Below are positions 2,376 to 59,819 of a DNA stretch of 64,000 nt, piece by piece. The stretch is from a virus, in the IMG/VR virus record IMGVR_UViG_3300045988_139374, positions 96,001 through 160,000 of that record. The stretch is one strand, 5' to 3'. The position numbers and the translations under genes are program-made. The notes beneath the pieces are model-generated. The model saw only the letters and a program-made list of their open reading frames with translations. It had not been told where the DNA came from and did not search any database. The stretch's first letter is position 1. Each line of letters opens with the position of its first letter.

Positions 2376-3242
2376 ATGGAAACTAGTGTTGTTCAATATA
2401 ATAATGATACCAAAATTGCCGACTCTAAAGATATAAATGTATATCTTGCGCAGGAGTATATCAATACTCAAGATCCAATTCCAGCTATATATTTTCCTAG
2501 ATGTGAATATCCATTAACTTTCTATCAGACTAGAGATACTCTAGCAGATATGGATAAATATAAAGCATTTATAGACAATTGCACTCATAGATTCAGAAAA
2601 TCTAGAACATATAAATCTTATAAATCATATCTTATGAGTATGGGTCTTGATAGATGTCAAGTTATTGGAAATATTCAAGATGGAATGGCTAATATAGAAA
2701 TGCATCATAATTTTCTCACTATTTATGATATTACTATATTAATATCTCAGCATATTTTAAATACTGCTGGCAGATGCACTACATTTGATATAGTAGCCCT
2801 ATTGATGCAAGAGCATAGAAATAATAATATTCCTATCGTAATGCTTTCAGAAACAGTCCATCAGCTATATCATGACAATCCAGATTTTTATATTCCTATT
2901 TCTATGACATTTGGTAAATGGTGGGATCTGCTAATAAAATATAGATATGGAATAACTCTTGATATTGCCTACAAAGTAGTAAAATATATTCAAAATTGTC
3001 AGAGAAATAATGAATTAAATTCTGTAGAATTTTTCAAACTGTCTGATGATATTAAGAATTGGGGAGAATATAATGAATACAATTATTATAACAATTATTG
3101 TGGCAACATTGTTAATTATGGTTACGGCAATAATAGTAACTCTAAGTTTGAGTTTAACACGCCTGTTGAAAACTCTTCTCCGGATCTCAGAAATTCGGCA
3201 GGAGTCGGACAAATTCTCACTGCAAACGAAATATACGGTTAA
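2376..3242 (+). CDS. Hypothetical protein; paralogue of 28258..29070 (shared IE[MI]HH ... T.H.L.H ... IP....FG core)
   Basis: ORF track; AAGGAGG 8 nt upstream of the ATG. First gene of a rightward unit, divergent from the 1..2285 gene. By-eye alignment with the 28258 product: NIEMHHNF / KIEIHHTPF, SETVHQLYHDN / TATEHELVHNG, YIPISMTFGKW / FIPPSKVFGRY. Confidence 0.7.
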   Translation: METSVVQYNNDTKIADSKDINVYLAQEYINTQDPIPAIYFPRCEYPLTFYQTRDTLADMDKYKAFIDNCTHRFRKSRTYKSYKSYLMSMGLDRCQVIGNIQDGMANIEMHHNFLTIYDITILISQHILNTAGRCTTFDIVALLMQEHRNNNIPIVMLSETVHQLYHDNPDFYIPISMTFGKWWDLLIKYRYGITLDIAYKVVKYIQNCQRNNELNSVEFFKLSDDIKNWGEYNEYNYYNNYCGNIVNYGYGNNSNSKFEFNTPVENSSPDLRNSAGVGQILTANEIYG

Positions 3243-3722: not shown

Positions 3723-3798
3723 GCAGCTGTAGTTCAATTGGTAGAGCGTCTGCCTTCCACGCAGAATGTTGCGAGTTCGAGTCTCGTTAGCTGCTCCA
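3723..3798 (+). tRNA. tRNA-Gly (anticodon TCC), CCA encoded
   Basis: Hand-folded cloverleaf. Acceptor GCAGCTG/TAGCTGC. D arm GTTC-AATTGGTA-GAGC. Anticodon arm TCTGC-CTTCCAC-GCAGA. T arm GCGAG-TTCGAGT-CTCGT. Discriminator T followed by CCA. Confidence 0.85.
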
Positions 3799-3939
3799 TT
3801 AGAATTTAGGTTTTGGCTTTCCCTAAATTCTAAAAATTCCATCTTTTCGTCAACGTTCGTATTTTTTCACATCCATCCGCATTTGTTCCTTTCTGTTTTT
3901 CTCTCGGCTAGTACTCTGGCTAGTCGAGAGTTTTTATGA

Positions 3940-4010
3940 TGCGCCATCGCCAAGCGGTAAGGCAGGGGACTTTGACTCCCCCATCGTAGGTTCGACTCCT
4001 GCTGGCGCAA
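3940..4010 (+). tRNA. tRNA-Gln (anticodon TTG), no encoded CCA
   Basis: Acceptor TGCGCCA/TGGCGCA, giving the U1-A72 pair typical of bacterial tRNA-Gln. Anticodon arm GGGGA-CTTTGAC-TCCCC. T arm GTAGG-TTCGACT-CCTGC. Confidence 0.8.
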
Positions 4011-4015
4011 TTTAT

Positions 4016-4104
4016 GCTGGAGTAGCTCAGCTGGCCAGAGCGGATGTTTTGTAAGCATCGTGCCTTTACGGATCTCGCAGGTTCGAATCCTGTCTCCAGC
4101 TCCA
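4016..4104 (+). tRNA. Atypical 89-nt tRNA; the canonical fold gives anticodon TGT (Thr) with a 17-nt variable region
   Basis: Acceptor GCTGGAG/CTCCAGC. D arm GCTC-AGCTGGCCA-GAGC. Anticodon arm GATGT-TTTGTAA-GCATC. Variable region GTGCCTTTACGGATCTC. T arm GCAGG-TTCGAAT-CCTGT. Ends T + CCA. The identity call is uncertain (see findings). Confidence 0.6.
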
Positions 4105-13987: not shown

Positions 13988-14764
13988 TTAAACTGTCATG
14001 ATTAGAGGAATACTCTTATTATTAGCACTAACGTAATTAGATTCAAGATAATCAATTACATTATCTCTCTTACTAGCTTCATTCTCAAGATTTCCAATCT
14101 TAAGATCTAGAGTTGAAAATACTGTTTCCAATCCATCCCAATATTTTAAGTTATTAGAGAGGAAAGCTGCAACGTCAGCTTGAGCTAATTGTTCAAACTT
14201 TTCCATTGCAGTAGCAGGAATACTAGTAAGAGAATCTAAATGCTTTAGCAGAAGAATGATATTAAATTCTCCAATTGATACATCATAGTTGCCAGTTGCA
14301 ACTAGACGAATTCTATTAGGAGGTTCAAATTCAGGAATGATCTGATTACTAAACATAGAAGCATAATCAGCTCTTCCTTTCATTCCTAGGATATCATCCA
14401 TAGTAAAGTTTGCTGCTAGACCAGCATCTATAGTGCCATATCCAAAAGTTTGTGCAAGTCCAATAGATCTATTTCCATATTTGGTCCAATCTATATCTCC
14501 TACACCAAGAATAGTTTGCCCACCAATGAAATCTTCATTGATATAATACCAGCCTTCTTTTTTAGGAGCTGTTTGCTCATTAATCTTAAAAGAAAGCTTT
14601 CTAGGACAATATCTAGAATATGTAGTAAGAGAATCTTCTTTAATAACATTTGCCCAAGCATCTTTTCCAAATTCTGCAGGCAAATGCTTAGTAAGAGGAA
14701 TAAGTCCTAATCTCCACTCAATTTTATCTACCAATTTTGCAATATTATTTTGATATCCAGCCAT
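13988..14764 (-). CDS. Hypothetical protein (likely virion-module gene by position)
   Basis: ORF track. It follows the stop of the 14772 gene by 7 nt, downstream of the protease-like gene. Confidence 0.65.
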   Translation of the reverse strand: MAGYQNNIAKLVDKIEWRLGLIPLTKHLPAEFGKDAWANVIKEDSLTTYSRYCPRKLSFKINEQTAPKKEGWYYINEDFIGGQTILGVGDIDWTKYGNRSIGLAQTFGYGTIDAGLAANFTMDDILGMKGRADYASMFSNQIIPEFEPPNRIRLVATGNYDVSIGEFNIILLLKHLDSLTSIPATAMEKFEQLAQADVAAFLSNNLKYWDGLETVFSTLDLKIGNLENEASKRDNVIDYLESNYVSANNKSIPLIMTV

Positions 14765-15128: not shown

Positions 15129-15989
15129 TTAAATGTAATTTTGAATCTCATTTGCAATATAGTCTTCAATACTCATAACGATAGTATTTTTTCCAGCTTC
15201 AGTAAGAGCTAGCTTATGAGGATTAATAATATCTACTGTATCATACTTAGTCATATCATAGCATTCCTGGAGCATCTTAAAATTAGAACTCTTATCCTTG
15301 ACATAGCTAATAGCAGATTCTTTAATAGTAGAAATTGCATTAACTACATCTTGATTAGAAAATTCCTTAATGAAAGATTTACTTCCATCCATTGCATTAG
15401 ACATAGCAAAGTTAGACTTAGGAATAGCAATACTAGAAGCAGATTCATTTAGAACTCCTCTTGTATATGCGTGAGGATGAGAAGGATAAATGACATAGTC
15501 ATAAGTAATCATCTTAAGATTCTCAACAACTGCACCCTGAGGAGTACTAGAAATAGTACCAAGTGCACGAAGTGAAAATGCAGGAAGAACTCCTTGACGC
15601 AGATCCTTATCAAAAGCTTCGCCTAGAGCATTATTAGTTCCCTGGAAGGTAGACATAACATTATCGCCTTCCATCCAAAGCTTTAGATATCTAACACAGA
15701 TCTTAGTCGGATCAATAGTTTGCTGACGAACTAGAGAACTAGCATCTGCTCCAATAGGATGTCCAGCTTCTCCACATAGTTGTCCAGCTGCTAGCAATTC
15801 TTGCTGTCTAGGAGCATTAACTTCTCTAATCAGATCTGCAGTCCTATAAATACGTCCATTACGATTCTTTTCATTGCCTGTCTGAAGAGTGCCGATACCA
15901 GTAACACGATTATTATTTTTATCTTCTCTAATGTCTACACTTTCCATGCAAACACTAGATTCATTTAGAATATATCCAATTTTGCCCAT
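15129..15989 (-). CDS. Prohead (head-maturation) serine-protease-like protein
   Basis: Track ORF 15129..16007. The ATG at 15989 follows GGGAGG. Motifs NRNGRIY ... GQLCGEAGHP ... FSLRALG match my recollection of the NxNGRxYP ... GELDHP ... SSRGLG pattern of SPO1/Twort-type prohead proteases. This is from memory, not a search. Confidence 0.5.
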   Translation of the reverse strand: MGKIGYILNESSVCMESVDIREDKNNNRVTGIGTLQTGNEKNRNGRIYRTADLIREVNAPRQQELLAAGQLCGEAGHPIGADASSLVRQQTIDPTKICVRYLKLWMEGDNVMSTFQGTNNALGEAFDKDLRQGVLPAFSLRALGTISSTPQGAVVENLKMITYDYVIYPSHPHAYTRGVLNESASSIAIPKSNFAMSNAMDGSKSFIKEFSNQDVVNAISTIKESAISYVKDKSSNFKMLQECYDMTKYDTVDIINPHKLALTEAGKNTIVMSIEDYIANEIQNYI

Positions 15990-16050
15990 GGTAATAATAC
16001 CTCCCATGCTAAAATTTGTTAGGCTAATTACTAAAAAGTTAAGGAATAAT

Positions 16051-17833: not shown

Positions 17834-18028
17834 TTACTCTTTATTATATGTAGATGGAAGTAGATTTACGTTGATATAAATAAGAGGCATCATCTTATTT
17901 TCATAATCATGATCTACTGTAATATATCTAATACATTGCTTAGGAATTTCTATTGCTTTATCTTCGCCTTCTTTATTAAAGGCCAATTCACATTCATAAG
18001 TAAAAGTACTGATAAAAGCTTTCCCCAT
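17834..18028 (-). CDS. Small hypothetical protein
   Basis: Track ORF 17834..18070. The ATG at 18028 is preceded by AAGGAGGA. Confidence 0.6.
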   Translation of the reverse strand: MGKAFISTFTYECELAFNKEGEDKAIEIPKQCIRYITVDHDYENKMMPLIYINVNLLPSTYNKE

Positions 18029-18117
18029 TTTGCTATCCTCCTTAATAGAATTATATAGGAGTGAACCCAATAAGAAATTTTAGAAAAGAGGAGGATCATA
18101 TAAGATCCTCCTCAATT

Positions 18118-18798
18118 TTATTCCCAATATTCTAAAGATGATTGTCCAAAGAAAAATGCTTTAATTCTGCAGAAAATATAATGAATATATTCTTGCCTAC
18201 AGATATTATACAATATAGATCTATCAGATACAGGATTCTTTATATCTCTTGCGATGCATTTTTTAATTTCAATATTCTTAATTCCTTTAATACAATCCAT
18301 ACGAATATCTAATATTGCAGAATTATAAAAAGTGCAAGGTTCATAAAAGATAGAATCATGCCAATTGGAAAAATTCATTAAACTATTGCTGAATAATACT
18401 CTATTGAATTTACAATGACTAAATAAAGCTCTATCCATCTTACAAGTCTCAAATCTCATATGCTTGAAACTACAATGCTCACTCCAACTAGATACAAGGT
18501 TTGACATTGTGAAAGAAGCAAAAGAGAAATCACAATCGTCAAAATGGACACTATCTAATTTAGTATTAAAGAATTTTGCTCCAAAGAAATTACAATGCCT
18601 AAAAACAGATACGTCTAAATTTGCATTAGAAAAATCTACATTTTGAAAGCTTGCATATTGAAGATTTTTAAATGACAGATCCATCCCGCTAAGATCTAAT
18701 CCATCAAATATTGCTCTATATGACTCCCAATCTTCTACGTCTTGTGCAAGATAATGAGCGTGTCTCTCAAGAATCTTATTAAGGGTTTCCTCTGTCAT
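18118..18798 (-). CDS. Pentapeptide-repeat protein (Qnr/MfpA-type beta-helix predicted)
   Basis: About 24 consecutive five-residue repeats have L/F/M at the central position, running from DLSGM DLSFK NLQYA SFQNV DFSNA NLDVS VFRHC NFFGA KFFNT KLDSV HFDDC DFSFA through LFSNS LMNFS. AAAGAAAGGAA lies upstream of the ATG. Confidence 0.8.
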   Translation of the reverse strand: MTEETLNKILERHAHYLAQDVEDWESYRAIFDGLDLSGMDLSFKNLQYASFQNVDFSNANLDVSVFRHCNFFGAKFFNTKLDSVHFDDCDFSFASFTMSNLVSSWSEHCSFKHMRFETCKMDRALFSHCKFNRVLFSNSLMNFSNWHDSIFYEPCTFYNSAILDIRMDCIKGIKNIEIKKCIARDIKNPVSDRSILYNICRQEYIHYIFCRIKAFFFGQSSLEYWE

Positions 18799-18911
18799 AC
18801 TACCAATTCCTTTCTTTTTAGAATAATTAATTAGGAGTCGATTTGATTATAAACCTTAAAAATGGCTCAGTGGAACACTAATATAATCAAATCTAAGGAG
18901 GTAGATGATCA

Positions 18912-21900
18912 ATGGTCGTACTTGAAGATCTTAAAGATTTGCTTATGTATAAGAAGCAATTCTTCCTTCCTGTGAATATGAAGGATAAACGTCATGGATC
19001 TGCAATCATGCTCATGACCCCAAATTATCAGTCATCTATGCTAGCAATGACTGAACCTTATACACTAAATAGACGTACCTTTGAGTCTTATTATATCGAA
19101 AAAACTATTACAAGATATATTCAACAACAGACTGAATCTGTTGTTGAAATTACTGATCCTGGTGAGTATCTTTTTGAAGTTGAATTGACTTCTAAAGAGA
19201 GAAAAGAACTTGATGATAGTGAATTCGGCATTCCTGAACAAAGAAGATATCCTCTGAATGATGAATCTCATGTACTAGCTGCTATTAGATTCTTTAATCA
19301 TGTAGAAAAGGAATATGAAGCAGAACTTGCTAAGAATATCATTAAAAAGATTAAAGAATATGATATGGCTGACAAAGTTCATGTAGGAGATGGAAATAGA
19401 TTTAAGCCCTATTGGGAAAAATCTGGGCTTGCTAATAAATCTACTAATGAATCTGGTCAAATTGTTAAATCTGCTCCTGATCCTGAGGAATATAAGAAAA
19501 CTCTTATTAATGCAGTAAAGGATACTCTTCATCTTAAGGGATATAAATGTGGAATTCATAAAGATGATAGATGGGGTACTGATGAATTTATCAATGGTGT
19601 GAATTCTCTTTATATTGGCAGATATGATGATACAGAAATTAAAGATGTAGTCAATCAAATCAAAGCTGTTATTGGTCCTGGATATAAAGTATGTGAAGAC
19701 GATTTTAATACTGTCTTTATTGATGGTCCTAATAAAGCAATGAGAGAATTCACTGAAGATGAATATTTCAATGAGTTTAATATTAAGAGCTTTATTAGTG
19801 GTACTGCTATATCTTCTGCTAATAAGAAGATGAATAAGGATTATCGTCTTCTAACCTTTACTGGATATGAAAGAGATATCAATGTTGTGCAGAAGTATAT
19901 TGATCAAGAATATATTAAGGCATGCATGGCAAAAGTCAAACAAAAGATGCCTTATGATAAGATCAATATTATTTGCTGTGGTGATGGATCTAAGCCTGAA
20001 GAATTTACTCCTACTTCTGTTCTGGTATATACTCCTGAGGCTTTTAAACATGCCGGTGGAAAGTTTGGATATGGAGACTATATTAAATATATTCTCCAGC
20101 TATATGCAGTTTATTGCATCAAGATGCCTATTGGAAGCAAATATGAAAGAGTTCTAGATAGTCTTGCAGAACCTGCTGCTATTCTATTTTCTGGAGTTGC
20201 AGCAAAAGAAATTGCTAAGAAAACTAATGATGATCAATTTACTGTAGAACGAGTATTCCAATATATTATTGATAAAGATGGCATTGATACACTACTTAAA
20301 ATTCTCAGATACAATGCAACTGCTGCTGTTATGAAATATGCAGCAGAATATGGAAAGATTTATTATCCTATTAATAGATCTCTCTTTGTAGAAATAGCTG
20401 AAGAGAATGAAGAATATCTAAAATCTCTTCAAGAAGATACTACTATTCCTGTTCCTAATCCTATGCCTGATAGTATTAGAAAGCTTGGAAATACTGCAGA
20501 ACGCATTAAGAGAAGGCTTAAGTCTAAGACTATTTATAAGCTTAATAAACTTAAAAGAGATCTTGAAAAAGGAACTGGAGATTCTGATAATCCTGGATAC
20601 ACTATTCAAAGTCTTGATGTAGGTATTCCTACTCCTTCTAATGGATCTTCTGCTCCTAGTGAATCTTTCAGTCTTTCTAAACTGAATCTCTGGTCTCAAG
20701 GAGATTATGTAAATGAAAATGGATTTGTATATCTATTTGAAGATTCTACAAAATATGATATGCAACTTCGTAAAGCTCTTTATAGAGATAGATTGAAAAA
20801 TGATAAAGCTGTTATTCAGCTATATAAGAAGGTAAAAGCTGATATGCCTATCATCAGATATACCTTTGTTAAAATGAATAGATACAATAACCGTAATCTA
20901 TTCTATGATCTATCTTATTACAATGAGTCTTTCTTTAGAAATATGGCTATGATCAATGATAGTGATCGTAAAAATATTATGAGACTCTTTAAAACCTATA
21001 TTGAGCTTATGGAACGTCTACTAAATGATGATTCTCTAAGTGGATATTCTAAGAAAACTGTTTTTATCCCTGTACTAGATTGGAGACATAATAACTCTCT
21101 AAAGATGTGGATGTATAAAGAGGATATTAATCCTATTTCTGCCATCTATTATTATATGAGAAATAATCCTAAAGAACTCTCTAAACTATTTGGAGATAAA
21201 GACGTTGTTTTTCTTGGAGCTAAAAATTACTTCAAAGTAAACTTTGCTAAGGATGATTTTAGTAAGAGTGGAAATGTAACTAAATTCCTAAATCTTATTA
21301 AAAGAATTGTAGCCCTTGGGTATAATTCTCCTGCAGATCCTGATCCTGAAGGTGAGCTTGAAGATTCTCCTAAGGGAATTGCTATGGCTATCATTGATAA
21401 GGTTGAACAATCTAAAAATGTTCAAATCAATGATATCTCTAAACTAGATAATCTTTCTAATGATCAGAATCTTTATAATGATCAACCTGCAAAGGCAAGT
21501 ATGATTCCTGATGAAACTGCTGTGAAAAAGAAAGTAGTAGATACTGCATATAAAGTATCTGATGATGTGGTCACTACTACTTATGCAACAAATGTCAAAA
21601 ATAAGGTTGTTAAAGTTTCTGTAGATAGAAAGACTGTTACTAAAGAAGAGAATAAAGCAGCCACTGGAGTATCTGGTACCAAATCTGTAAATAGTACTTC
21701 TTCTAAAGAAAAGAAGGATGCTATTGTTGACTCTGTTGCTCAGGCAGCAAGAAATTCTGACAGTGTAGATACTGCTATGAATAAACTTGATGACGATCAG
21801 CAGTTTAAAGATATGGTCAATGCTATTCAGAATGATGATGAAGAGAATGTCAGAGTTGATAAGTCTCAAGCATCTGCTGTTATTGCTAAGCAAGAAGAAT

Positions 21901-24900
21901 TTCATAAGAAAGACGTTGAAGGAAAATCTGTTCAGGATCTTCTAAATGTGGATACCGCAGAAAAAGAATTGCCTGAAACTAAGTTAAAAGTATCTTCTAT
22001 CAATGACGATTGGCAACATATGACTTTCATGAACTTTGATAAAGATTATGATCCTGATAGTGATATTGTAAAGATGCTCGATGCTATGCAGCATTGGACT
22101 TATCCTATTGCTGTTACAAATGTTAGTGTTAAAGATAATTCTACATCTGAAGACATTGTAAATCTATGGACCATTGAATGTATAGATTATAAGAAAACTA
22201 AGTTTACACTTAAGGTTGATATTCCTAAATTTATCAATGGATCCAACTTCCTAAAACTCCGTGGCAATGAAAAGACACTGATGATTCAATCTGCACTTCT
22301 ACCCATTATCAAAACTGGTTTGGGAGAGTGCCAAATTATTGGTTCTGGCGGATATAACAAGATCTTTGTCAGAAGATTTGGTTCTCGTAAGGGTCAATCT
22401 AATGCCTATGCTAATAAACTCATTAGAGCTATTAGCAAGTATTGTGATAAGCATGATGATATTAAGTATGTAGCTGGTGATAATACTAAGGTTTGTACTA
22501 AATATGAATTGCCTATCGACTATATTGACCTTGCCCAAGTATTTAACTCTATTGAATCTGCTGGTCTAAAGATTTTCTTTAATCAAGATGAACTTAGATC
22601 TGAATATGAAGTGGATGATACTAAGGGCATTCCTATTGGTGTATTTACTCAATTTGATTCTAAGGATAAGACTGGTAAGGATGTAATCATTTACTATGAC
22701 GGAACTTCTAGTCCTACTCTAGCTGGTTATATCACTACTTTGCTATTTTATAGATCTCAGGAGTTTATGGAATTCTATAATAGTCTAAAGATTACTGGTA
22801 CTCGCTGTACTTATTCTAAGGCTAGTATTTTGAATTGTGAGATTCCTGTTATTCTAATTTGCTCTTATCTTGAGGGTCTGATTAAGACCATGAATAAGGC
22901 TGGAATTAAGTATGAATTCGTACAAGAGCTAAATAAGGATATCAAATATAGTACTTATCAGGATTATATTGAATTCTCTGATGGCTATCTTGTATATGAA
23001 GCAAATTACTCTTCTAGCATGCTTATGAATGGTCTTAAGGAAAATGATACTTCTTCTTATTCCATCAAGGATGTAAATAATAGAAGAATGTATCTAGAGT
23101 TCCTTGAGACTTATACTAATAGTCTAAATTCTGATGGTCTAGAAAACTCTTATGACTGTATGATTGATCCTATTACTAAGGAAATTCTTGAGAGATTCAA
23201 GCTTCCTAGTGATTACGTTGGTATTCTAATCCATGCAAGTAATATGCTTGCAGATAATAAGTACATACGTCATATCGATCAAGGTGGTCGTAGATGGCGT
23301 CGTAAAGAACTTATCGCAGGTTACTTCTATAAAGCTCTTACTACTTCTTATCAGGATTATGCTAACCAGAATCGTCATACTCGTAAGAGAACAAAGATGA
23401 CGATTAAGCAATCTGCTGTTATCGATCTAATTGTTTCTAAAGACCCTGCTACCTCTGACCTTTCTATTAACAATGCTCTAAATGACGTTGAATGCTCAAA
23501 CTCTGTTACTAACAAAGGTCTAGTTGGTATGAATGTTGCTCGTGGTTATACTATTGCTACACGTGGATATGATGATTCTATGCTTAATCTATTAGGCATG
23601 GATACTGGATTCTCTGGCAATGTTGGTATTAATCGTCAAGCAACTGTTAATGCTAATATTGAAGGTGGAAGAGGATTTGTTAAAACTATTGATGGTAATA
23701 CAGATAAATTGTCTTCTGCTGCTTCTTTTACTATGACAGAAGCTGTTACTCCTCTTGGTACTACTCATGATGATCCTCCTAGATCTCTGATGACTTATGT
23801 CCAGACTTCTAAGCACATGATTCGTTGTGATAATAACGATCCTACTCTACTTACTACTGGTGCGGATGAAGCATTGCCTTATCTGACTTCTGATATCTTT
23901 GCTTATAAAGCTAAGGAAGATGGTAAGATTGTAGAATTGGTACAAGAAGGTTTTGGTAAGAGAAACTATATCGTTGTAGAATATAAGAGTGGTAAACATG
24001 AATTTATCAATCTTTCTGAAGAGGTTAAGAAAAACTCTGATGGTGGATATTATGTGCCTATGAAACTTGATACAGATATGAGTGTTGGTAAGACTTTCAA
24101 AGCTGGTCAAATTCTTGCATATGATAAGCTATCTTTCTCTAAATCTCTTGGCGAATCTGGTAATCTAGCTGCTAATATGGGCACTCTTGCAAAGATTGCT
24201 ATTATTAATACTGATGAAGGATTCGAAGACTCTGCAATGATTACTGAATCTTTTGCCAATAAACTAGGAACTCAAGTTATTCAAGGAATTGAAACTAGAC
24301 TAGAGAAAGGTTCTAATATTCAGGTTAGTAAATATCTTGGAGATCAAGTTATGGAAGGTGATACTCTATTCACTTTCCAAGCTGACTTTGATGACGAAGC
24401 TATGAATAGCCTGCTCAAGAATCTAGCAATGGATGCTGGTGAAATTTCTGAATTGGGCAGAAATCCTGTTAAATCTAAATATACTGGTATCGTATGTGAT
24501 ATTCAAATCTATCGTACATGCGATATTGATACTTGCTCCGAATCTCTACGTAAATTCATTGGACTTTATGAGAAGAGAGTTAAAGATATCAAAAAAGTAT
24601 ATGATCAGTACGGAATTGATTCTGCCATTCTTCCTAAGACTGGTAAAGTTCCTGAAGTTGGCAAAACTAAAAATCTAGATGATTCTGTTCTAGTAATCTA
24701 TTATATCAAATATACAGATACTATGTCTGCTGGTGATAAGATTACTTTCTATTCTGCAAATAAGGGTATCATTAAGAAGATTATTCCTAAGGATGTAGAA
24801 CCTTATACTGCTTTCAGACCTAATGAGCATATTGATAGTTTCATGTCTCTAAGCTCTATCTCTGGACGTATGACTTGTTCTATTCCTCTATTTGCAGCAA

Positions 24901-24977
24901 CTTCTAAACTTATGGTAGAATTGGATAGATCCGTTAAAGATCTAGCTGGAATTCCTTACGACGAGAGTCAATTGTAA
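18912..24977 (+). CDS. Giant 2021-aa protein: about 1000-aa N-terminal extension fused to a multisubunit RNA polymerase beta-subunit-like region that ends shortly after the GDK...NKG motif
   Basis: AAGGAGG upstream of the ATG. Near residue 1520, SINNALNDV...RGYDDSMLNLLGMDTGFSGNVGINRQ aligns by eye with the E. coli beta segment NNPLSE...[28 protein letters not shown]. Near residue 1940, SAGDKITFYSANKGIIKKIIPKDVEPY...RM aligns with [25 protein letters not shown]...SRM. Confidence 0.75.
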   Translation: MVVLEDLKDLLMYKKQFFLPVNMKDKRHGSAIMLMTPNYQSSMLAMTEPYTLNRRTFESYYIEKTITRYIQQQTESVVEITDPGEYLFEVELTSKERKELDDSEFGIPEQRRYPLNDESHVLAAIRFFNHVEKEYEAELAKNIIKKIKEYDMADKVHVGDGNRFKPYWEKSGLANKSTNESGQIVKSAPDPEEYKKTLINAVKDTLHLKGYKCGIHKDDRWGTDEFINGVNSLYIGRYDDTEIKDVVNQIKAVIGPGYKVCEDDFNTVFIDGPNKAMREFTEDEYFNEFNIKSFISGTAISSANKKMNKDYRLLTFTGYERDINVVQKYIDQEYIKACMAKVKQKMPYDKINIICCGDGSKPEEFTPTSVLVYTPEAFKHAGGKFGYGDYIKYILQLYAVYCIKMPIGSKYERVLDSLAEPAAILFSGVAAKEIAKKTNDDQFTVERVFQYIIDKDGIDTLLKILRYNATAAVMKYAAEYGKIYYPINRSLFVEIAEENEEYLKSLQEDTTIPVPNPMPDSIRKLGNTAERIKRRLKSKTIYKLNKLKRDLEKGTGDSDNPGYTIQSLDVGIPTPSNGSSAPSESFSLSKLNLWSQGDYVNENGFVYLFEDSTKYDMQLRKALYRDRLKNDKAVIQLYKKVKADMPIIRYTFVKMNRYNNRNLFYDLSYYNESFFRNMAMINDSDRKNIMRLFKTYIELMERLLNDDSLSGYSKKTVFIPVLDWRHNNSLKMWMYKEDINPISAIYYYMRNNPKELSKLFGDKDVVFLGAKNYFKVNFAKDDFSKSGNVTKFLNLIKRIVALGYNSPADPDPEGELEDSPKGIAMAIIDKVEQSKNVQINDISKLDNLSNDQNLYNDQPAKASMIPDETAVKKKVVDTAYKVSDDVVTTTYATNVKNKVVKVSVDRKTVTKEENKAATGVSGTKSVNSTSSKEKKDAIVDSVAQAARNSDSVDTAMNKLDDDQQFKDMVNAIQNDDEENVRVDKSQASAVIAKQEEFHKKDVEGKSVQDLLNVDTAEKELPETKLKVSSINDDWQHMTFMNFDKDYDPDSDIVKMLDAMQHWTYPIAVTNVSVKDNSTSEDIVNLWTIECIDYKKTKFTLKVDIPKFINGSNFLKLRGNEKTLMIQSALLPIIKTGLGECQIIGSGGYNKIFVRRFGSRKGQSNAYANKLIRAISKYCDKHDDIKYVAGDNTKVCTKYELPIDYIDLAQVFNSIESAGLKIFFNQDELRSEYEVDDTKGIPIGVFTQFDSKDKTGKDVIIYYDGTSSPTLAGYITTLLFYRSQEFMEFYNSLKITGTRCTYSKASILNCEIPVILICSYLEGLIKTMNKAGIKYEFVQELNKDIKYSTYQDYIEFSDGYLVYEANYSSSMLMNGLKENDTSSYSIKDVNNRRMYLEFLETYTNSLNSDGLENSYDCMIDPITKEILERFKLPSDYVGILIHASNMLADNKYIRHIDQGGRRWRRKELIAGYFYKALTTSYQDYANQNRHTRKRTKMTIKQSAVIDLIVSKDPATSDLSINNALNDVECSNSVTNKGLVGMNVARGYTIATRGYDDSMLNLLGMDTGFSGNVGINRQATVNANIEGGRGFVKTIDGNTDKLSSAASFTMTEAVTPLGTTHDDPPRSLMTYVQTSKHMIRCDNNDPTLLTTGADEALPYLTSDIFAYKAKEDGKIVELVQEGFGKRNYIVVEYKSGKHEFINLSEEVKKNSDGGYYVPMKLDTDMSVGKTFKAGQILAYDKLSFSKSLGESGNLAANMGTLAKIAIINTDEGFEDSAMITESFANKLGTQVIQGIETRLEKGSNIQVSKYLGDQVMEGDTLFTFQADFDDEAMNSLLKNLAMDAGEISELGRNPVKSKYTGIVCDIQIYRTCDIDTCSESLRKFIGLYEKRVKDIKKVYDQYGIDSAILPKTGKVPEVGKTKNLDDSVLVIYYIKYTDTMSAGDKITFYSANKGIIKKIIPKDVEPYTAFRPNEHIDSFMSLSSISGRMTCSIPLFAATSKLMVELDRSVKDLAGIPYDESQL

Positions 24978-24988
24978 AAAAAATAAAT

Positions 24989-25015
24989 CCCGGTAGAGAT
25001 TAACTCTCTACCGGG
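24989..25015. terminator. Bidirectional terminator between convergent genes
   Basis: Stem CCCGGTAGAGA/TCTCTACCGGG with a 5-nt loop. An A-run lies upstream and T-rich sequence downstream. Confidence 0.75.
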
Positions 25016-25023
25016 ACTTTTAG

Positions 25024-25311
25024 TTATTTTTCAAATGTGAAGCTGTGCTCATCCTCACGATTAAGAACGATATCAAATGCAATCCTGCACATCATATCAT
25101 CCTGATAATCCTTTGAAATGATAATGTTCTTACACTTCATTGCATAGAGGACCATCATATTATTATAATCATCTTCTTCCTTGCTATCTGCAAAGACAGC
25201 ATAGAAGATATTATCGTCATTGGTCATCTTTTTGAGATCAGTGAGGCGAGACTGAATCTCTTCTTCAGTCTTTCCCTTAGTAGGGAGCAAGAGAAAAGTA
25301 CCATTAATCAT
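25024..25311 (-). CDS. Small hypothetical protein
   Basis: ORF track; GAAAGGAAGGAA upstream. Confidence 0.65.
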   Translation of the reverse strand: MINGTFLLLPTKGKTEEEIQSRLTDLKKMTNDDNIFYAVFADSKEEDDYNNMMVLYAMKCKNIIISKDYQDDMMCRIAFDIVLNREDEHSFTFEK

Positions 25312-25332
25312 ATTAAAACATTCCTTCCTTTC

Positions 25333-25575
25333 TTAAAAAATATTACCCTGAGAATCTTGCATACACTCCTTACCACACCAAGCACAAATGCAATGATTTG
25401 AACAGCCATCATAATAAGTCCATTGAATCTGAGAAGGCCAGCAATGCCAACCAATATTACAATAGAATTTTCTTAAAGGTTTAACAAACCCTGCAATTGC
25501 CCAGAAAGGGAAAAGCATTAAGCAACCAATAGAAAATGCTGAAATTGCATAAATCGTAATATCAAAAGCATCCAT
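25333..25575 (-). CDS. Small membrane protein with Cys/Trp-rich C-terminus
   Basis: ORF track; GGAGGAA upstream. TM-like stretch ITIYAISAFSIGCLMLFPFWAIAGF, then CNIGWHCW...CSNHCICAWCGKEC. Confidence 0.65.
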   Translation of the reverse strand: MDAFDITIYAISAFSIGCLMLFPFWAIAGFVKPLRKFYCNIGWHCWPSQIQWTYYDGCSNHCICAWCGKECMQDSQGNIF

Positions 25576-25587
25576 TTATATTCCTCC

Positions 25588-25884
25588 TCAGCAATTAGGG
25601 CAACTGTATTTTGCTTCAAGATCTTCTACTCTCTTCAGTGCCAGTTTACCAATGCCAATCCAGAGAGGATTGCAAACGATCTCGATAGGATTGATATCCT
25701 GCTGATTAGAGAATACAACAGTAAAACTCTCAATCTGCTGATAGAGATATGACTCAGGCTTGAGCTGATAATCAAGAGCATAGCCATCGCAATAGGTTAG
25801 AGGAGTCTTCTGACCCATAGGAATACACTCTGCTTTGATCATTGCCAGGATTTGCTTCCGGTGCTTACTGCTTTTGTTTTTCAT
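25588..25884 (-). CDS. Small hypothetical protein
   Basis: Track ORF 25588..25926. The ATG at 25884 follows GAAAGGAAG and removes the overlap with the upstream gene. Confidence 0.55.
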   Translation of the reverse strand: MKNKSSKHRKQILAMIKAECIPMGQKTPLTYCDGYALDYQLKPESYLYQQIESFTVVFSNQQDINPIEIVCNPLWIGIGKLALKRVEDLEAKYSCPNC

Positions 25885-25901
25885 TTTCTTCTTCCTTTCT
25901 A

Positions 25902-26180
25902 TTACTTCTGCATTCCTGCAGCACATCCGATGAAAATTGGTTTGAGTACTATATGATATTTTCTATTGAAACTAAGGATAATATTATAAAGAGTACTCAA
26001 ACTATACTTAGCTACAAGCAGCGACTTATTAGAAGAGTAGTAATAATAAATCGCGGTAGGAATTCCATCTTCTTTAGGAGGAATAATTTCCAATCCAATA
26101 TAATAGAATTTATTGCTCTTAAAAAGATTGCCAATCCATATGCCTGCAGCTTTAATTAAGATTGCTTTTTCTTCATCCAT
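25902..26180 (-). CDS. Small hypothetical protein
   Basis: ORF track; GAAAGGAAA upstream. The start overlaps the upstream stop (TAATG). Confidence 0.6.
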   Translation of the reverse strand: MDEEKAILIKAAGIWIGNLFKSNKFYYIGLEIIPPKEDGIPTAIYYYYSSNKSLLVAKYSLSTLYNIILSFNRKYHIVLKPIFIGCAAGMQK

Positions 26181-28257: not shown

Positions 28258-29070
28258 ATGATTAATCCTGTTAATCTTATCAAATTAGATGATATCAGAG
28301 ATAGCTCTGGTAAAACGTTCCATATAGGACAATTACCTGATTATGATCAAGAAGATTATGACCTTGCAAATCCAAAAGACTTTGAAAGATATGTAAAGGA
28401 CGTTAAATCTGAAGTTCGAGGATCTTTTGAATATAGAGAGATGGTCAAATATCTTAGAGAATATTGTGGAATGGATAGATCTGGGCTTAATCCTGATATT
28501 ACTAATAATGATAGCAAACGTGTAAAAATTGAAATTCATCATACTCCATTTGTATTGGAAGATATAGTACGAATTGTTTATGAAAAGAGACTAGCTAATC
28601 ATGAAGACCTTTCTGTAGAAATGGTTGCTAAAGAAGTAATGGCTTGCCACTATAGATGTATTATAGGATTATATCCTCTTACAGCTACAGAGCATGAATT
28701 GGTCCATAATGGATATTTATTTATTCCGCCGTCTAAAGTATTTGGTAGATATGATTTATTTATGCAAGAATATGCTCCTTATATAGATCCTGCTGATAAA
28801 GAAACTATTGAAGAAATAGAAGGTCATGAAAAATCATTTAATCCTGAAGAGCAAAATATGCTACTATCTCAGTCTAATATTTACTTAGATCCGGAGGGTG
28901 CATATCAAGTTCCTCAACTAGACCAATTTAGTCAATCTATTTCTAATAGAATTGATATGATTAAAGATAATATGTATGCTTTGCCAACTATGCAAGAAGC
29001 ACAGCAATTACCTGTACATCAACAAGATATAGAAGCTATAACTTTTCTAGACGATTCTAGCAGTAATTAA
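28258..29070 (+). CDS. Hypothetical protein; paralogue of 2376..3242
   Basis: ORF track; GAGAGGG upstream. First gene of the long rightward block. See 2376..3242 for the shared motifs. Confidence 0.7.
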   Translation: MINPVNLIKLDDIRDSSGKTFHIGQLPDYDQEDYDLANPKDFERYVKDVKSEVRGSFEYREMVKYLREYCGMDRSGLNPDITNNDSKRVKIEIHHTPFVLEDIVRIVYEKRLANHEDLSVEMVAKEVMACHYRCIIGLYPLTATEHELVHNGYLFIPPSKVFGRYDLFMQEYAPYIDPADKETIEEIEGHEKSFNPEEQNMLLSQSNIYLDPEGAYQVPQLDQFSQSISNRIDMIKDNMYALPTMQEAQQLPVHQQDIEAITFLDDSSSN

Positions 29071-40589: not shown

Positions 40590-41360
40590 ATGATTTTAGA
40601 AGATAATCAAATAAAAGAATTATTAGAAAAAATAAAAGATCTAGAAATTAAAAATAGTACTAAGAGCAATTATTCTATTGATGATAAAAGAGTTCCTAGG
40701 GTAACAGAAATATTATCTGCAATGATGCATGAAGACAATCTAATGAATTGGGCTAATGGTTTAGGATGGAAAAGAATATCCTATAGAGCATTTATGAAAG
40801 ATGCTCAAGATAAAGGAACTTATTCACATTTAGCAATAGAAATATTCTTAAGACAAGGAAGAATTGATCTAGATACAGATTTACAAATTCCTAATCAAAA
40901 AATTAGAGATACTGTAGAATCTTGTTTAGACGGTTTCATTCAATGGTGGGATGAATTACATAAACTTCATAAAAATATTAAATTAATCTATCTAGAAGAA
41001 ACTATGATCAATGAATATTTTGGAGGAACATGTGATTGTTTACTTCAAGTAGATGGAGAATATTGGTTATTAGACTTTAAGACTTCTAATCATATGAATT
41101 ATAAATATTCTCTACAATTAGCAGCATATCGATATCTTTTAAAAAATACAAAGAATATTAATATTTCTAAATGTATGATTTTAAGATTAGATAAACTAAA
41201 TCATTTTTATGAAACTCAAGAATTTAATCTTAGCAATAAAGATCATCTAAACTATATTGAAAATTGTGAGCAAACATTTATGATTCTTTTAACAGCATTT
41301 AAGATGAGAATGTATACTAATCTTCAATATCAAGAAATTACTAATTTAAACAAAAAATAA
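40590..41360 (+). CDS. PD-(D/E)XK family exonuclease (Cas4/RecB/YqaJ-like)
   Basis: AAAGGAGAGAAAG upstream. Motifs GTYSHLAIE, GGTCDCLL, WLLDFKTS and QLAAYRYLL appear in the canonical order. Confidence 0.65.
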   Translation: MILEDNQIKELLEKIKDLEIKNSTKSNYSIDDKRVPRVTEILSAMMHEDNLMNWANGLGWKRISYRAFMKDAQDKGTYSHLAIEIFLRQGRIDLDTDLQIPNQKIRDTVESCLDGFIQWWDELHKLHKNIKLIYLEETMINEYFGGTCDCLLQVDGEYWLLDFKTSNHMNYKYSLQLAAYRYLLKNTKNINISKCMILRLDKLNHFYETQEFNLSNKDHLNYIENCEQTFMILLTAFKMRMYTNLQYQEITNLNKK

Positions 41361-55062: not shown

Positions 55063-56253
55063 ATGATTAAGAATAATATCAATTGTGAAGATATGCCTTA
55101 TGAAGCTATCGATGTTATGAGTGATCATAACTACGTAGATTATATGGGCAAAACAATTGGTAATGCTTATGTGCTAGGAAAAACTACTCCACATGTAAAA
55201 CCAGATGGTAGTATAAAAATTAGATATCTTTGCAAGTGTAATCTTTGTGGTAAAAAGTTTATTGCTTATAGAGATGCCCTTACAAATCATATTAAAGGAA
55301 AATATATTCGTCCTTTATCTTGCGGATGTGATATAGAAAGAAAGCCTATTACTTCAGGAGAGAAAATTGGTAAACTTACAGTAGAAAGATTAATAAAAGA
55401 TGGAAAATCTTCAGAAGATAGATTCTGGATTTGTAAATGTGAATGTGGACGAGAAGTTGAAAAGAGAGAAAGCAATCTTTTAAATAGAACAATTAAAGAT
55501 TGTGGAATGTGCGGTAAAATTAAATCTGTACATGAGCCATATAAAGTAGGACAAAAACTTGGAATGCTTACAATCCGAGAAGTGCATAATGCTGGAATTG
55601 TAAGTACAGAATATTATATTTGTGATTGTGACTGCGGTACAAAAGGAGTTGTAAAGAAATATACCCAGCTTAATTATAAAGATGCATCTTTAAATTGTGG
55701 ATGTGTTAATGTTCAAAAAATGAAGAACCTTCATGATAAAACTAGAAAGCATGGTTTATCTGATACTAGAATTTATAATACGTATAAAGATATGATTAGA
55801 CGCTGTTATTGTAAAACAGATGATCATTATAAAGATTATGGTGGCAGAGGTATTTATGTTTGCGACGAATGGCAGAAGAAAGATAATTATAGTGGGTTAA
55901 AAGCGTTTGTTGATTGGGCATATAAAAATGGATATAATGATAATTTGTATATTGATCGTATTGATGTAAATGGCCCATATTCTCCTAGTAATTGTAGATG
56001 GGTATCAATGATTATTCAAGCAAATAATAAAAGAGATAGCGTATATATCACCGCTAATGGAGAAACATATACATTAGCGCAATGGGAAGCAGCTTCTGGC
56101 ATTAATCAAAATACTATTAGAAGAAGGTGTGAAAAAGGATATGATCCTCATACTGCAGTATATACTCCTACACCTACAAACCATGATTGTGTAAATGCAA
56201 TCTATTTTGTAGATGAGTATAATAATCCTATAAGTCAATTCGATAAAGAATAA
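55063..56253 (+). CDS. Zn-ribbon-repeat protein with homing-endonuclease-like (HNH_3/AP2-type) C-terminal module (tentative)
   Basis: GAAAGGAAAAG upstream. Three N-terminal repeats of the type G.K[IL]G...V...C.C.CG. C-terminus YKDYGGRGIYVCDEW ... YIDRIDVNGPYSPSNCRW ... QANNKR. AT-richer codon style than its neighbours. Confidence 0.4.
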   Translation: MIKNNINCEDMPYEAIDVMSDHNYVDYMGKTIGNAYVLGKTTPHVKPDGSIKIRYLCKCNLCGKKFIAYRDALTNHIKGKYIRPLSCGCDIERKPITSGEKIGKLTVERLIKDGKSSEDRFWICKCECGREVEKRESNLLNRTIKDCGMCGKIKSVHEPYKVGQKLGMLTIREVHNAGIVSTEYYICDCDCGTKGVVKKYTQLNYKDASLNCGCVNVQKMKNLHDKTRKHGLSDTRIYNTYKDMIRRCYCKTDDHYKDYGGRGIYVCDEWQKKDNYSGLKAFVDWAYKNGYNDNLYIDRIDVNGPYSPSNCRWVSMIIQANNKRDSVYITANGETYTLAQWEAASGINQNTIRRRCEKGYDPHTAVYTPTPTNHDCVNAIYFVDEYNNPISQFDKE

Positions 56254-56273
56254 ATGAGAGGAGTTAATAATTA

Positions 56274-58643: not shown

Positions 58644-58650
58644 AAGCAAA

Positions 58651-58685
58651 GGAGAGACTAGTAGCACCAAATAACTAGTCTCTCC
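58651..58685 (+). terminator. Intrinsic terminator directly after the GyrB-like gene
   Basis: Stem GGAGAGACTAGT/ACTAGTCTCTCC with an 11-nt loop, followed by TTATTTTTATTT. Confidence 0.7.
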
Positions 58686-58711
58686 TTATTTTTATTTAAG
58701 GAGAAGATGGT

Positions 58712-59308
58712 ATGTATATTGAATATCAACGTATGCATCTTGGAAAAGAACCTATCACTTTTATCACTGAAGAGTTTTGTGATTCTTATCGTAACAGCGG
58801 ATATTTATCAACAAGGCTTCAATATGGAGCTATTCTAGCTTTTATTAAAGATTTCTTTAAAGATACAGATATCTTTAAGTATTATGAATATAATATTGAA
58901 ATTAAGCATATCAATACTAATAAACTTTCATCTAAATCTATTATAGATAGCTATAAAGAGAAGTCTGAATGCTCATCTTCACGGGTTGAAAAGTTTAAAG
59001 TACGTATAAGATCTGCTGAATATGGCAGTGAGGATTACGAATGTGCAAATTTTAAATTTTGGCTTAGTGGAACTTATATTGTAAAATACGAATTCTGTAA
59101 TCCAGACTATATGAAGCAGCTCTTTAGAGATAAATGGCCTATTGAAGAAAAGGTAAAAAATAATTCTTCAGATGACAATATTGGTACAGTTACCATAAGT
59201 GATAAAGATCAAACTGTAAATGGTACAAGTTTAGTTATTGAAAATCAAGCTAATGAATTCATGCAAACGATGAATTCTAAATTCATTAGAAAGAAAGGAG
59301 AAAATTAA
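58712..59308 (+). CDS. Hypothetical protein (between the topoisomerase subunit genes)
   Basis: ORF track; AAGGAGAAG upstream. Confidence 0.65.
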   Translation: MYIEYQRMHLGKEPITFITEEFCDSYRNSGYLSTRLQYGAILAFIKDFFKDTDIFKYYEYNIEIKHINTNKLSSKSIIDSYKEKSECSSSRVEKFKVRIRSAEYGSEDYECANFKFWLSGTYIVKYEFCNPDYMKQLFRDKWPIEEKVKNNSSDDNIGTVTISDKDQTVNGTSLVIENQANEFMQTMNSKFIRKKGEN

Positions 59309-59310
59309 TT

Positions 59311-59799
59311 ATGGAAGCAAAATGGGTTGAGAATGAAAATGGTAGAGTAAGCATTGCTACTTATACTAGAGAAGATATGTATATGAGGCCTTGCGTACAA
59401 GATATCTATGATAATCTTCCTGAGTTTAATGATCCTATTCAATGGATTATGTATATTCATCCCAATGCAGATTGTACAGTTCAGGATGTCCTTGACTGTC
59501 TAATCAATGATTATTCTAATATTGACACTTTGCTATTTGCTCAAGCTGGTACTATTTGCCCTATTCCTGCTAGTGGGTCTATTGCAGAAGGCAAAGAATT
59601 TATCTCTAACCAAAAGAATCTTTTGACAAATTCTATGTTTGATCGAATTTCGTTTAATCGTTGCATGGAGCATTCTTATGGAAATGATTGCATTTATCTC
59701 TTCCATAATGATACTGCAGAAAATTGGATTAAAAATAATACTGGAGAGAACAAGATTATTGATTATTCCTCTGGAGAATTTGCAGAATATAATAAATGA
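59311..59799 (+). CDS. Hypothetical protein (between the topoisomerase subunit genes)
   Basis: ORF track; AAAGGAGAAAA upstream. Confidence 0.65.
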   Translation: MEAKWVENENGRVSIATYTREDMYMRPCVQDIYDNLPEFNDPIQWIMYIHPNADCTVQDVLDCLINDYSNIDTLLFAQAGTICPIPASGSIAEGKEFISNQKNLLTNSMFDRISFNRCMEHSYGNDCIYLFHNDTAENWIKNNTGENKIIDYSSGEFAEYNK

Positions 59800-59819
59800 A
59801 AGTCGGGTGCAAATAAATA

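Follow-up and report, generated by a model that had tools for sequence, protein, structure and literature searches.

A very likely N-beta subunit of a virion-packaged RNA polymerase in an uncultured jumbo phage, possibly made as a precursor with a leader and a variable cassette

We analysed a 64,000-nucleotide (nt) stretch of viral DNA (IMG/VR record IMGVR_UViG_3300045988_139374, positions 96,001 to 160,000; hereafter, the window) with a focus on one long gene on its plus strand. The gene very likely specifies the N-beta subunit of a multisubunit RNA polymerase that an uncultured jumbo phage packages into its virions (vRNAP). The best explanation of the data as a whole, which we regard as probable, is that the gene product, of 2021 amino acids (aa), is a vRNAP N-beta precursor composed of a leader, a cassette and a polymerase body. 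All features of the N-beta family that can be tested on a sequence were found in this gene, namely, matches to the family profiles, a beta fold with the active-site lysines, an early C-terminal end, a non-beta N-terminal region and a location among head genes.

The RNA polymerase (RNAP) beta module occupies residues 1040-2021, an assignment that is far beyond chance. Residues 850-2008 match positions 296-1416 of the 1424 positions of the profile phrog_3148, annotated as 'RNA polymerase beta subunit' (E=1.8e-134), and residues 655-2011 match positions 107-1390 of 1393 in phrog_14872 (E=1.2e-116). A tblastn search of 50,697 phage records yielded matches in 264 of them, all below 60% identity and all confined to residues ~905/1042-2011. 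These records include Staphylococcus phages SA1 and S6, Listeria phage LPJP1, Yersinia phage phiR1-37 (g099), Fusobacterium phages and phiKZ-like phages, with E-values down to 1e-113 for the N-beta genes of cultured jumbo phages. Pfam gave a marginal match on the beta part (Rpb2_6, E=0.003, under its threshold), and phmmer searches of PDB sequences with the whole protein or with residues 1-1050 returned no match even at E<=10. With 40 orthologues as input, AlphaFold2 modelled residues 1040-2021 at a predicted local distance difference test score (pLDDT) of 78 and a predicted template modelling (TM) score of 0.72, and Foldseek matched this model to bacterial RNAP beta chains (E~1e-24, probability 1.0, TM(query) ~0.5).

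The module leads from the N-terminal lobes to the active-site lysines (GDK...NKG), the SGRM motif and one more helix. In the family profile, HDD..R..LM and GDK..NKG..P..PY align to bacterial beta in the same order: the family stretch 'TPxGSTHDDPxRTLMTYxQTSKH' corresponds to the bacterial region 'IPFLEHDDANRALMG', and 'GDKIVFYSANKGxIKYIIP..EPY' to residues 823-860 of the 1119-residue Thermus beta, a bacterial stretch ending in.EDMPF. Residues G1941, D1942, K1943 and K1951, which align to the bacterial GDK..NKG, are invariant in the 40-87 orthologues compared. Residues 1040-2021 provide the polymerase with the lobes of beta, its fork/Rif region and the active-site lysines of the beta side. The fold and the order of the landmarks (lobes, fork/Rif-like region, HDD..R..LM, GDK..NKG, SRM) are those of bacterial RpoB, whereas the identity between the two proteins is ~12-13%, the last ~200 residues of RpoB, which complete the active-site barrel and dock beta-prime, have no counterpart, and a non-beta N-terminus of ~1040 aa precedes the module. 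An earlier note on this DNA had placed a multisubunit RNAP beta module in the C-terminal half of the protein, in agreement with the PHROG, tblastn and Foldseek results; the significant profile match that it called for is that to phrog_3148. The motifs quoted in that note were recovered by a residue-level check: FGIPEQRRYPLNDESHVLAAIRFF at residues 105-128, within the DUF6582 module described below, NNALNDV at residues 1520-1526, RGYDDSMLNLLGMDTGFSGNVGINRQ (RGYDD...GINRQ) at residues 1551-1576, GDKITFYSANKG, the GDK...NKG lysine motif, at residues 1941-1952, and SGRM at residues 1984-1987, with 69 residues following NKG up to the C-terminus.

The unusual length of the open reading frame (ORF) and the lack of any above-threshold Pfam match on its beta part could point to an artefact or a degenerate gene, that is, to a chimera made in assembly, to two genes read through as one or to a cellular rpoB pseudogene that has been truncated. 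This reading is effectively refuted, and we assign it a negligible probability. The ORF is one continuous reading frame with an ATG start. Its near-twin P0078, also of 2021 aa and 99% identical, represents 300 clustered sequences that come from independent data, and over 80 collinear orthologues of full length (40-88% identity) share both its start and its end, with the active-site and other motifs invariant among them. Furthermore, the surrounding genes are phage structural and replication genes. An intein, an intron or a gene-fusion artefact was rejected as well, given that the ORF is continuous and that its ends and domain order are kept in the orthologues. Megablast of positions 18000-26000 against the phage collection detected no near relative.

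The C-terminus of the ORF coincides with the ends of both PHROG profiles. The SA1 match extends to within 6 nt of the end of a 1418-aa coding sequence. In KTN4 (species Phikzvirus phiKZ), the match stops 63 nt short of the end of KTN4_219 (1451 aa), which by its position and annotation corresponds to phiKZ gp178. All 86 aligned full-length metagenomic orthologues extend at most 13 residues past the focal C-terminus. Because the Thermus GDK stretch lies at residues 823-860 of 1119, ~200 residues of bacterial beta are left without a counterpart, and the beta C-terminal motifs GGQRxGEME and HxVDDK are absent from all six frames of the window. The six-frame motif search returned a lone chance LLVRDK in a 116-aa ORF. 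The vRNAP core consists of N-beta, C-beta and three beta-prime pieces, and the sites at which beta is split differ between vRNAP and the non-virion RNAP (nvRNAP) (PMC7598289); in vRNAP, the portion of beta beyond the lysine-bearing barrel is a separate protein (PMC7824862). The protein thus ends where vRNAPs canonically divide beta into N-beta and C-beta, which is no unusual truncation, and the ORF would stop after the SGRM helix because the remaining ~200 beta residues form a separate C-beta polypeptide in the vRNAP family. The earlier note was right that the beta-prime-docking C-terminal region is missing and in drawing a link to the split polymerases of the phiKZ and AR9 type; its suggestion of a truncation or a split at an unusual place is contradicted by the ends shared with the profiles, SA1, KTN4_219 and the orthologues.

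Cellular-type RpoB, a single chain including HxVDDK and GGQRFGEME, is not what this gene encodes. The nvRNAP of phiKZ (gp123 and gp71-73) and the beta pieces of AR9 resemble the focal protein in being a split, phage-encoded beta without alpha or omega. However, the solved phiKZ nvRNAP is split ahead of the lysines, with K386 and K394 both in the C-terminal piece gp71-73 (PMC8287921), whereas the focal lysines end the N-terminal piece. The beta pieces of nvRNAP are also products of early genes and carry no long N-terminal extension; by contrast, the focal protein unites the lysines and the N-terminal lobes in one chain, has a 1039-aa extension and is encoded in a head-gene setting. At the sequence level, no match to the solved nvRNAP chains was obtained.

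The set with which the protein belongs is the vRNAP N-beta of jumbo phages, including phiKZ gp178 (KTN4_219), SPN3US gp241, 201phi2-1 gp274/273, phiR1-37 g099 and the SA1/S6 proteins (PHROG 3148 / 14872). These cultured-phage subunits are homologous to the focal protein over residues ~655-2011, end at the same place just after the lysine motif, have a non-beta N-terminal region ahead of the beta module and are encoded near the prohead protease gene. They differ in sequence (22-31% identity) and in size, the focal protein being ~600 aa longer than its cultured counterparts (1393-1451 aa). The extra sequence consists of a conserved 89-aa leader and a variable cassette located between two Y-[LI]-x-E motifs.

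This layout emerges from the comparison of the 86 full-length metagenomic orthologues, on which all length statistics are based. The orthologues are 1465-2471 aa long (median 1990), so that a length of 2021 aa is ordinary for the clade. The stretch between the two conserved Glu residues varies from 30 to 976 aa (median 474), whereas the body after the second Glu is nearly constant (1321-1445 aa, median 1406) and is of the size of the N-beta of cultured phages. The focal protein can be described accordingly as an 89-aa leader, a 521-aa cassette (DUF6582, D3 and D4) and a 1411-aa body, of which residues 611-1039 are a conserved, family-wide part. Residues ~600-2021 are conserved in all orthologues, and residues ~186-600 are restricted to the focal clade. 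The earlier note had taken about 1000 N-terminal residues to be an unusual addition. Residues 1-1039 are indeed devoid of beta homology, but only ~600 of them (leader plus cassette) exceed what is found in cultured phages, and long N-termini have been documented for SPN3US gp241, phiKZ gp178 and 201phi2-1 gp274/273 (PMC5694885).

The AlphaFold2 model of residues 1-860 (pLDDT 74) contains confident domains at residues 1-71, 90-177, 190-274, 311-505 and 615-850, which are separated by low-confidence segments (72-89, 178-189, 275-310, 506-523, 554-586 and 600-614). The leader, N0, is compact over residues 1-71 (pLDDT ~90 for 1-70), and its tail (72-89, pLDDT <50) ends with E-Y-L-F-E89. It is kept at the extreme N-terminus of nearly all orthologues and is also present on non-beta paralogues; a homology query with the leader only returned two fragments and nothing new. 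The following module, DUF6582, is the sole Pfam match in residues 1-1039 (96-150), even in permissive scans of five segments. Its copies, 45-76% identical, are found in ~900-aa proteins of 260-290-kb contigs and in multidomain phage proteins with GNAT, kinase-like, endonuclease and HAD domains. We found no literature on DUF6582 and no related solved structure, the comparison of its profile with the PDB giving chance-level matches only. As an observation on the module itself (19179-19466; P0014-P0077), its G, P, P, D, H, A, I and F are invariant in the consensus 'FG[IL]P..[RK][RK][YF]P[LM].D..HV..AI[RK].FN', and it is shuffled among many unrelated large phage proteins, often after Y-[LI]-x-E.

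The remainder of the cassette is specific to the clade. Homologues of D3 are confined to the focal clade in both the blastp map and the representative search, and residues 181-603 gave only six matches among 1.84 billion representatives, all of them clade members; hence, no function can be transferred to this region. PADLOC had no match on the protein. In the PDB, the N-terminal model as a whole shows only a weak resemblance to zincin peptidases (ColH, M1 aminopeptidases and lethal factor; E>=0.12), and no HExxH was seen on reading the N-terminal sequence; we do not claim a peptidase activity for the N-terminus. Among viral models, Foldseek returned an uncultured Myoviridae protein (E=1e-6), a 921-aa uncharacterised protein of PBS1 (E=2.6e-5) and G4KK38, an unnamed protein (E=2.4e-3) whose 1393 aa equal the length of the phrog_14872 profile. 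From the aligned lengths and the PHROG coverage, we infer that D5 is a family-specific pre-beta domain, within the region that Iyer et al. named 'a unique N-terminal region' (PMC7824862). Hidden Markov models of the leader, DUF6582 and D5 had no significant match in SA1 N-beta, where D5 was collinear at E=1. The K/V/D/A/S/T-rich linker (residues ~851-1039), downstream of which the tblastn matches to cultured phages begin, is probably disordered, as judged from its composition.

In the orthologues, the variable segment harbours recognizable enzyme domains. Pfam identified a NUDIX domain in P0130 (residues 129-243), GNAT in P0137 (219-301), GNAT plus NUDIX in P0149 (486-729) and AAA_18 plus DUF362 in P0187 (211-640). 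Given these occupants, the slot probably delivers accessory or host-takeover proteins together with the polymerase. A second activity beside transcription, which the earlier note had envisaged, fits the domains of the orthologues; for the focal protein itself, no enzymatic domain could be assigned. Furthermore, the N-terminal modules occur without the polymerase. P0004-P0011, proteins of 1080-1627 aa, have this leader together with DUF6582, GNAT and/or DUF362, and D5, and end ~80 aa past D5. In the three loci examined (L004, L007 and L008), no beta module lies within 10 kb of the beta-less gene, and the three share a gene order, with RNase H and ThyX upstream and Cpn60/GroEL downstream. The beta-less proteins may be associated with vRNAP, and they might represent either paralogues or the first half of an N-beta that has been split once more. 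Since the leader and D5 are not restricted to the polymerase, a role in virion incorporation or ejection is favoured over a catalytic role in transcription.

The borders of the cassette coincide exactly with two glutamates. Glu89 is kept in 80 of 86 orthologues, with Tyr at P4 in 74 of 89 and Leu/Ile at P3 in 68 of 89, and Glu610 (V-Y-L-F-E610) in 85 of 86. Apart from these two, the poorly conserved first 1050 residues contain no conserved [LIVM]-x-E site; the two share a Tyr at P4, and among the orthologues there is a strong preference for Tyr/Phe at P4 and for Leu/Ile/Phe at P3. Both glutamates fall into low-pLDDT segments, at the leader/cassette and cassette/body borders, respectively. A Y-[LI]-x-E motif also stands directly before DUF6582 in unrelated proteins (YIEE in P0014, YLSE in P0015 and P0018, YINE in P0043 and YLQE in P0006). 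The prohead proteases of T4, phiKZ, 201phi2-1 and SPN3US cut after Glu in x-X-E motifs, and in 201phi2-1 the N-terminal 275-aa propeptide of N-beta is removed after the Glu of T-F-E (TFE-275) (PMC5694885). The focal leader likewise ends at an x-X-Glu, as expected of a capsid-targeting sequence or a propeptide, and Glu610 provides another such site.

Homologous vRNAPs are packaged in the head and ejected (PMC5694885, PMC7598289, PMC7824862), and by this analogy the packaging into virions that the earlier note had considered is plausible. The mechanism that we propose, tentatively and at somewhat less than even confidence, is that the protein would be made late, as a precursor, which the leader, perhaps with D5, would direct into the prohead alongside the other vRNAP subunits. 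There, the T4/phiKZ-type prohead protease encoded nearby would cut after Glu89 and Glu610, removing the leader and turning the cassette into a protein of its own, either internal or ejected. The mature N-beta of ~1411 aa, the size known from cultured jumbo phages, would then be ejected with the DNA and transcribe the early genes. The linker at residues 851-1039 may ease unfolded passage through the tail, a step that has been raised as a problem for vRNAP (PMC7598289 and PMC5694885).

Several points weigh against this explanation. We infer the protease sites, and with them the precursor status, from the motifs alone; Y-[LI]-x-E may serve a structural purpose or mediate an interaction instead. 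YFNE288, a third occurrence in a linker, lacks conservation, and we do not count it as a general site; the pattern [YF][LIMF]xE is too short for its counts in neighbouring ORFs to be informative. Published giant-phage cleavage motifs have S/A/G/T, not L/I, at P3. The T4 prohead protease prefers L/I at this position (L/I-x-E). The focal cassette contains no enzyme recognizable by Pfam, PADLOC or PDB searches, and PHROG scans of 40 other ORFs in the window revealed no further RNAP subunit, so that an intact vRNAP set is an assumption. Finally, the homologous N-terminal region is retained in SPN3US and probably also in phiKZ gp178 (PMC5694885), so that processing is not a fixed trait of the family.

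The SPN3US case, in which a long N-terminal region stays on N-beta in the virion and is functional (PMC5694885), suggests that the N-terminal ~1040 residues might be retained as an integral part of the polymerase, serving as a promoter-recognition, assembly-platform or regulatory module in place of sigma, alpha and omega, with the Y-L-x-E sequences being structural or docking motifs. Jumbo-phage RNAPs have no homologues of alpha, omega or sigma, and no specificity factor of a vRNAP is known (PMC7598289); moreover, D5 and the linker are conserved throughout the orthologues, and a viral protein as long as an N-beta (1393 aa) matches D5 in structure. For D5 plus the linker alone, retention is plausible. 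For the entire region we consider it unlikely, given that a cassette of 30-976 aa with unrelated, swapped enzyme domains is hard to square with a core polymerase role, that the leader and D5 occur on beta-less proteins and that the border motifs lie within predicted flexible linkers. More improbable still appears a polyvalent effector-delivery protein in which the cassette, an injected host-takeover or anti-defence factor, remains uncleaved and acts beside the polymerase, tethered to N-beta. The NUDIX, GNAT and AAA+DUF362 domains in the slot of the orthologues would suit such a protein, as would the GNAT and ADP-ribosyltransferase domains of injected polyvalent phage proteins (PMC7824862) and the HD phosphohydrolase fused to C-beta of AR9-type vRNAP (PMC7598289). 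However, the focal cassette has no identifiable catalytic domain, and conserved Glu motifs at both of its borders suggest release rather than tethering.

The N-beta precursor with leader, cassette and body, which we favour over these alternatives, has its closest precedents, by analogy, in the HD domain of AR9-type C-beta and in polyvalent injected proteins. The latter (Iyer et al. 2017, PMC5512222) are likewise large, multidomain, virion-delivered proteins that mix unrelated enzymatic modules, and the AR9-type fusion sets a precedent for enzyme domains on vRNAP subunits (PMC7598289). Here, by contrast, the carrier is N-beta, the insertion site is fixed between leader and body, and no recognized conflict-related domain is present: the focal protein combines beta with DUF6582 and unassigned domains but no recognized effector, and the orthologues combine beta with NUDIX, GNAT or AAA_18+DUF362. 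The capsid-targeting sequences of T4 and the head propeptides of giant phages resemble the focal arrangement in having a leader that ends in x-X-Glu, a protease gene nearby and cargo bound for the capsid interior and ejection. However, the T4 sequences are peptides of 10-20 aa, whereas the focal leader is a folded domain of ~70 aa with a tail, its processing is predicted from motifs, and two sites would free an internal cassette in the manner of a polyprotein. It is conceivable, albeit on balance doubtful, that the N-beta gene of this widespread clade is a delivery chassis, with a slot fixed between a capsid-targeting leader and the polymerase body that takes up exchangeable cargo (NUDIX, GNAT, AAA+DUF362, DUF6582 and the unassigned domains D3 and D4), and from which the prohead protease frees the cargo at the two Y-[LI]-x-E sites, giving each lineage its own co-injected set of host-takeover or anti-defence proteins. 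If so, the occurrence of the leader, DUF6582 and D5 in beta-less proteins would point to a targeting code that ejected proteins have in common.

Table 1. Features of the focal gene, neighbouring head genes and beta-less relatives (window positions, except for the beta-less proteins, which are given by locus)
Feature	Position	Strand	Basis or remark
Whole gene	18912..24977	+	ATG start, 2021 codons plus stop; probable precursor of virion-type RNAP N-beta
Leader N0, residues 1-89	18912..19178	+	orthologue conservation, AlphaFold2
Motif Y-L-F-E, residues 86-89, putative prohead-protease site 1	19167..19178	+	conservation, low pLDDT
DUF6582/phrog_16160 module, residues ~90-185	19179..19466	+	PF20223, E=3.6e-9, above cutoff
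Domain D3, residues ~190-274, alpha/beta	19479..19733	+	AlphaFold2 pLDDT ~83; only in a subset of orthologues
Domain D4, residues ~311-505	19842..20426	+	AlphaFold2 pLDDT ~85
Motif Y-L-F-E, residues 607-610, putative prohead-protease site 2	20730..20741	+	starts constant-length body
Domain D5, residues ~615-850	20754..21461	+	pLDDT ~88; within phrog_14872 coverage
K/V/D/A/S/T-rich linker, residues ~851-1039	21462..22028	+	composition, weak column conservation
RNAP beta module, residues 1040-2021	22029..24974	+	AlphaFold2, Foldseek, profile alignment
Prohead (head maturation) protease gene	15129..16007	-	phrog_207 E=3.3e-26, phrog_3014 E=1.5e-17
Virion structural protein gene	13988-14764	-	PHROG scan
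Beta-less protein P0005	L004 10001-13243		
Beta-less protein P0010	L007 10001-14767		
Beta-less protein P0008	L008 10001-14116		

The N-beta gene lies ~3 kb from the gene for the prohead protease (Table 1). On the 99%-identical contig, this protease matches Peptidase_S77, which we take to be the T4 gp21 family of MEROPS, and weakly S80, the phiKZ gp175 family. The neighbourhood in KTN4 is alike, with the head protease, two head proteins and then N-beta, and the association of protease and N-beta genes is syntenic across giant phages (PMC5694885); the protease is a candidate for the processing enzyme and a marker of this synteny. The protease itself contains F-I-K-E at residues 212-215 of 292, in a position resembling that of the C-terminal autocleavage site AQE-203 of SPN3US gp245. 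The rest of the window encodes DnaB-like and Dda-like helicases, an exonuclease, RNase H and two topoisomerase II subunits. The beta-prime motif DFDGD does not occur in any of its six frames, nor does the window contain a counterpart of the SA1 gene annotated as 'beta-subunit' beside N-beta. Related contigs reach 250-282 kb, and the genome probably exceeds 200 kb, so that the absence of C-beta and beta-prime from 64 kb says little; their genes probably reside elsewhere in the genome. The SA1 gene (L001 3658-4884, QPI17141.1), annotated as 'RNA-polymerase beta-subunit', appears by eye to have a bridge-helix-like stretch and a Cys motif, features that are more beta-prime-like, and its annotation may be imprecise.

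Other genes of the window are recorded here for completeness. The 226-aa gene divergent from N-beta (18118-18798, minus strand) encodes a pentapeptide-repeat protein, according to Pfam on the 99%-identical contig, and its product matches several PHROGs of unknown function. Three tRNA genes, Gly-TCC, Gln-TTG and Thr-TGT, are located at 3723-4104 (plus strand; ARAGORN, confirmed by Rfam). Two paralogues of a family of unknown function, phrog_12252, are found at 2376-3242 and 28258-29070 (both plus strand; E=3.5e-25 and 5.7e-40, respectively). The genes for the two 789-aa topoisomerase II subunits (56274-58643 and 59820-62189, plus strand) have two small ORFs between them, and an HNH endonuclease gene (55063-56253, plus strand) lies directly upstream of the first; the region 55063-62189 may thus represent a homing-endonuclease association. 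At 62978-63967 (plus strand) there is a tyrosine-integrase-like gene (phrog_1, E=4.9e-53) in a genome that is otherwise like that of a lytic jumbo phage. The segment 40001-42000, around an intergenic gap and the exonuclease gene (40590-41360), is AT-rich (GC content 0.23 versus ~0.31 for the window).

The early stop and the long N-terminus are known traits of the N-beta family. In our literature searches, we encountered no report of a cassette slot at a fixed place in N-beta where NUDIX, GNAT, AAA+DUF362 and DUF6582 replace one another, of two conserved Glu-motif borders in N-beta, or of a leader, DUF6582 and D5 common to N-beta and beta-less proteins. As of 2020, no jumbo-phage vRNAP had been purified (PMC7598289); its five or more pieces have to be directed into the capsid, traverse the tail and assemble again. 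If the N-terminal region is simply retained, as in SPN3US, the focal protein would be merely a longer-than-usual member of a known family. The leader/cassette/body layout with its two candidate sites offers testable predictions on the targeting signal, the start of the mature subunit and the proteins delivered with it. If the slot with interchangeable enzymes, such as NUDIX and GNAT, is what it appears to be, it would constitute a new way of bringing activities for host takeover or anti-defence into the cell by injection, and a natural template for packaging foreign proteins into the heads of giant phages.

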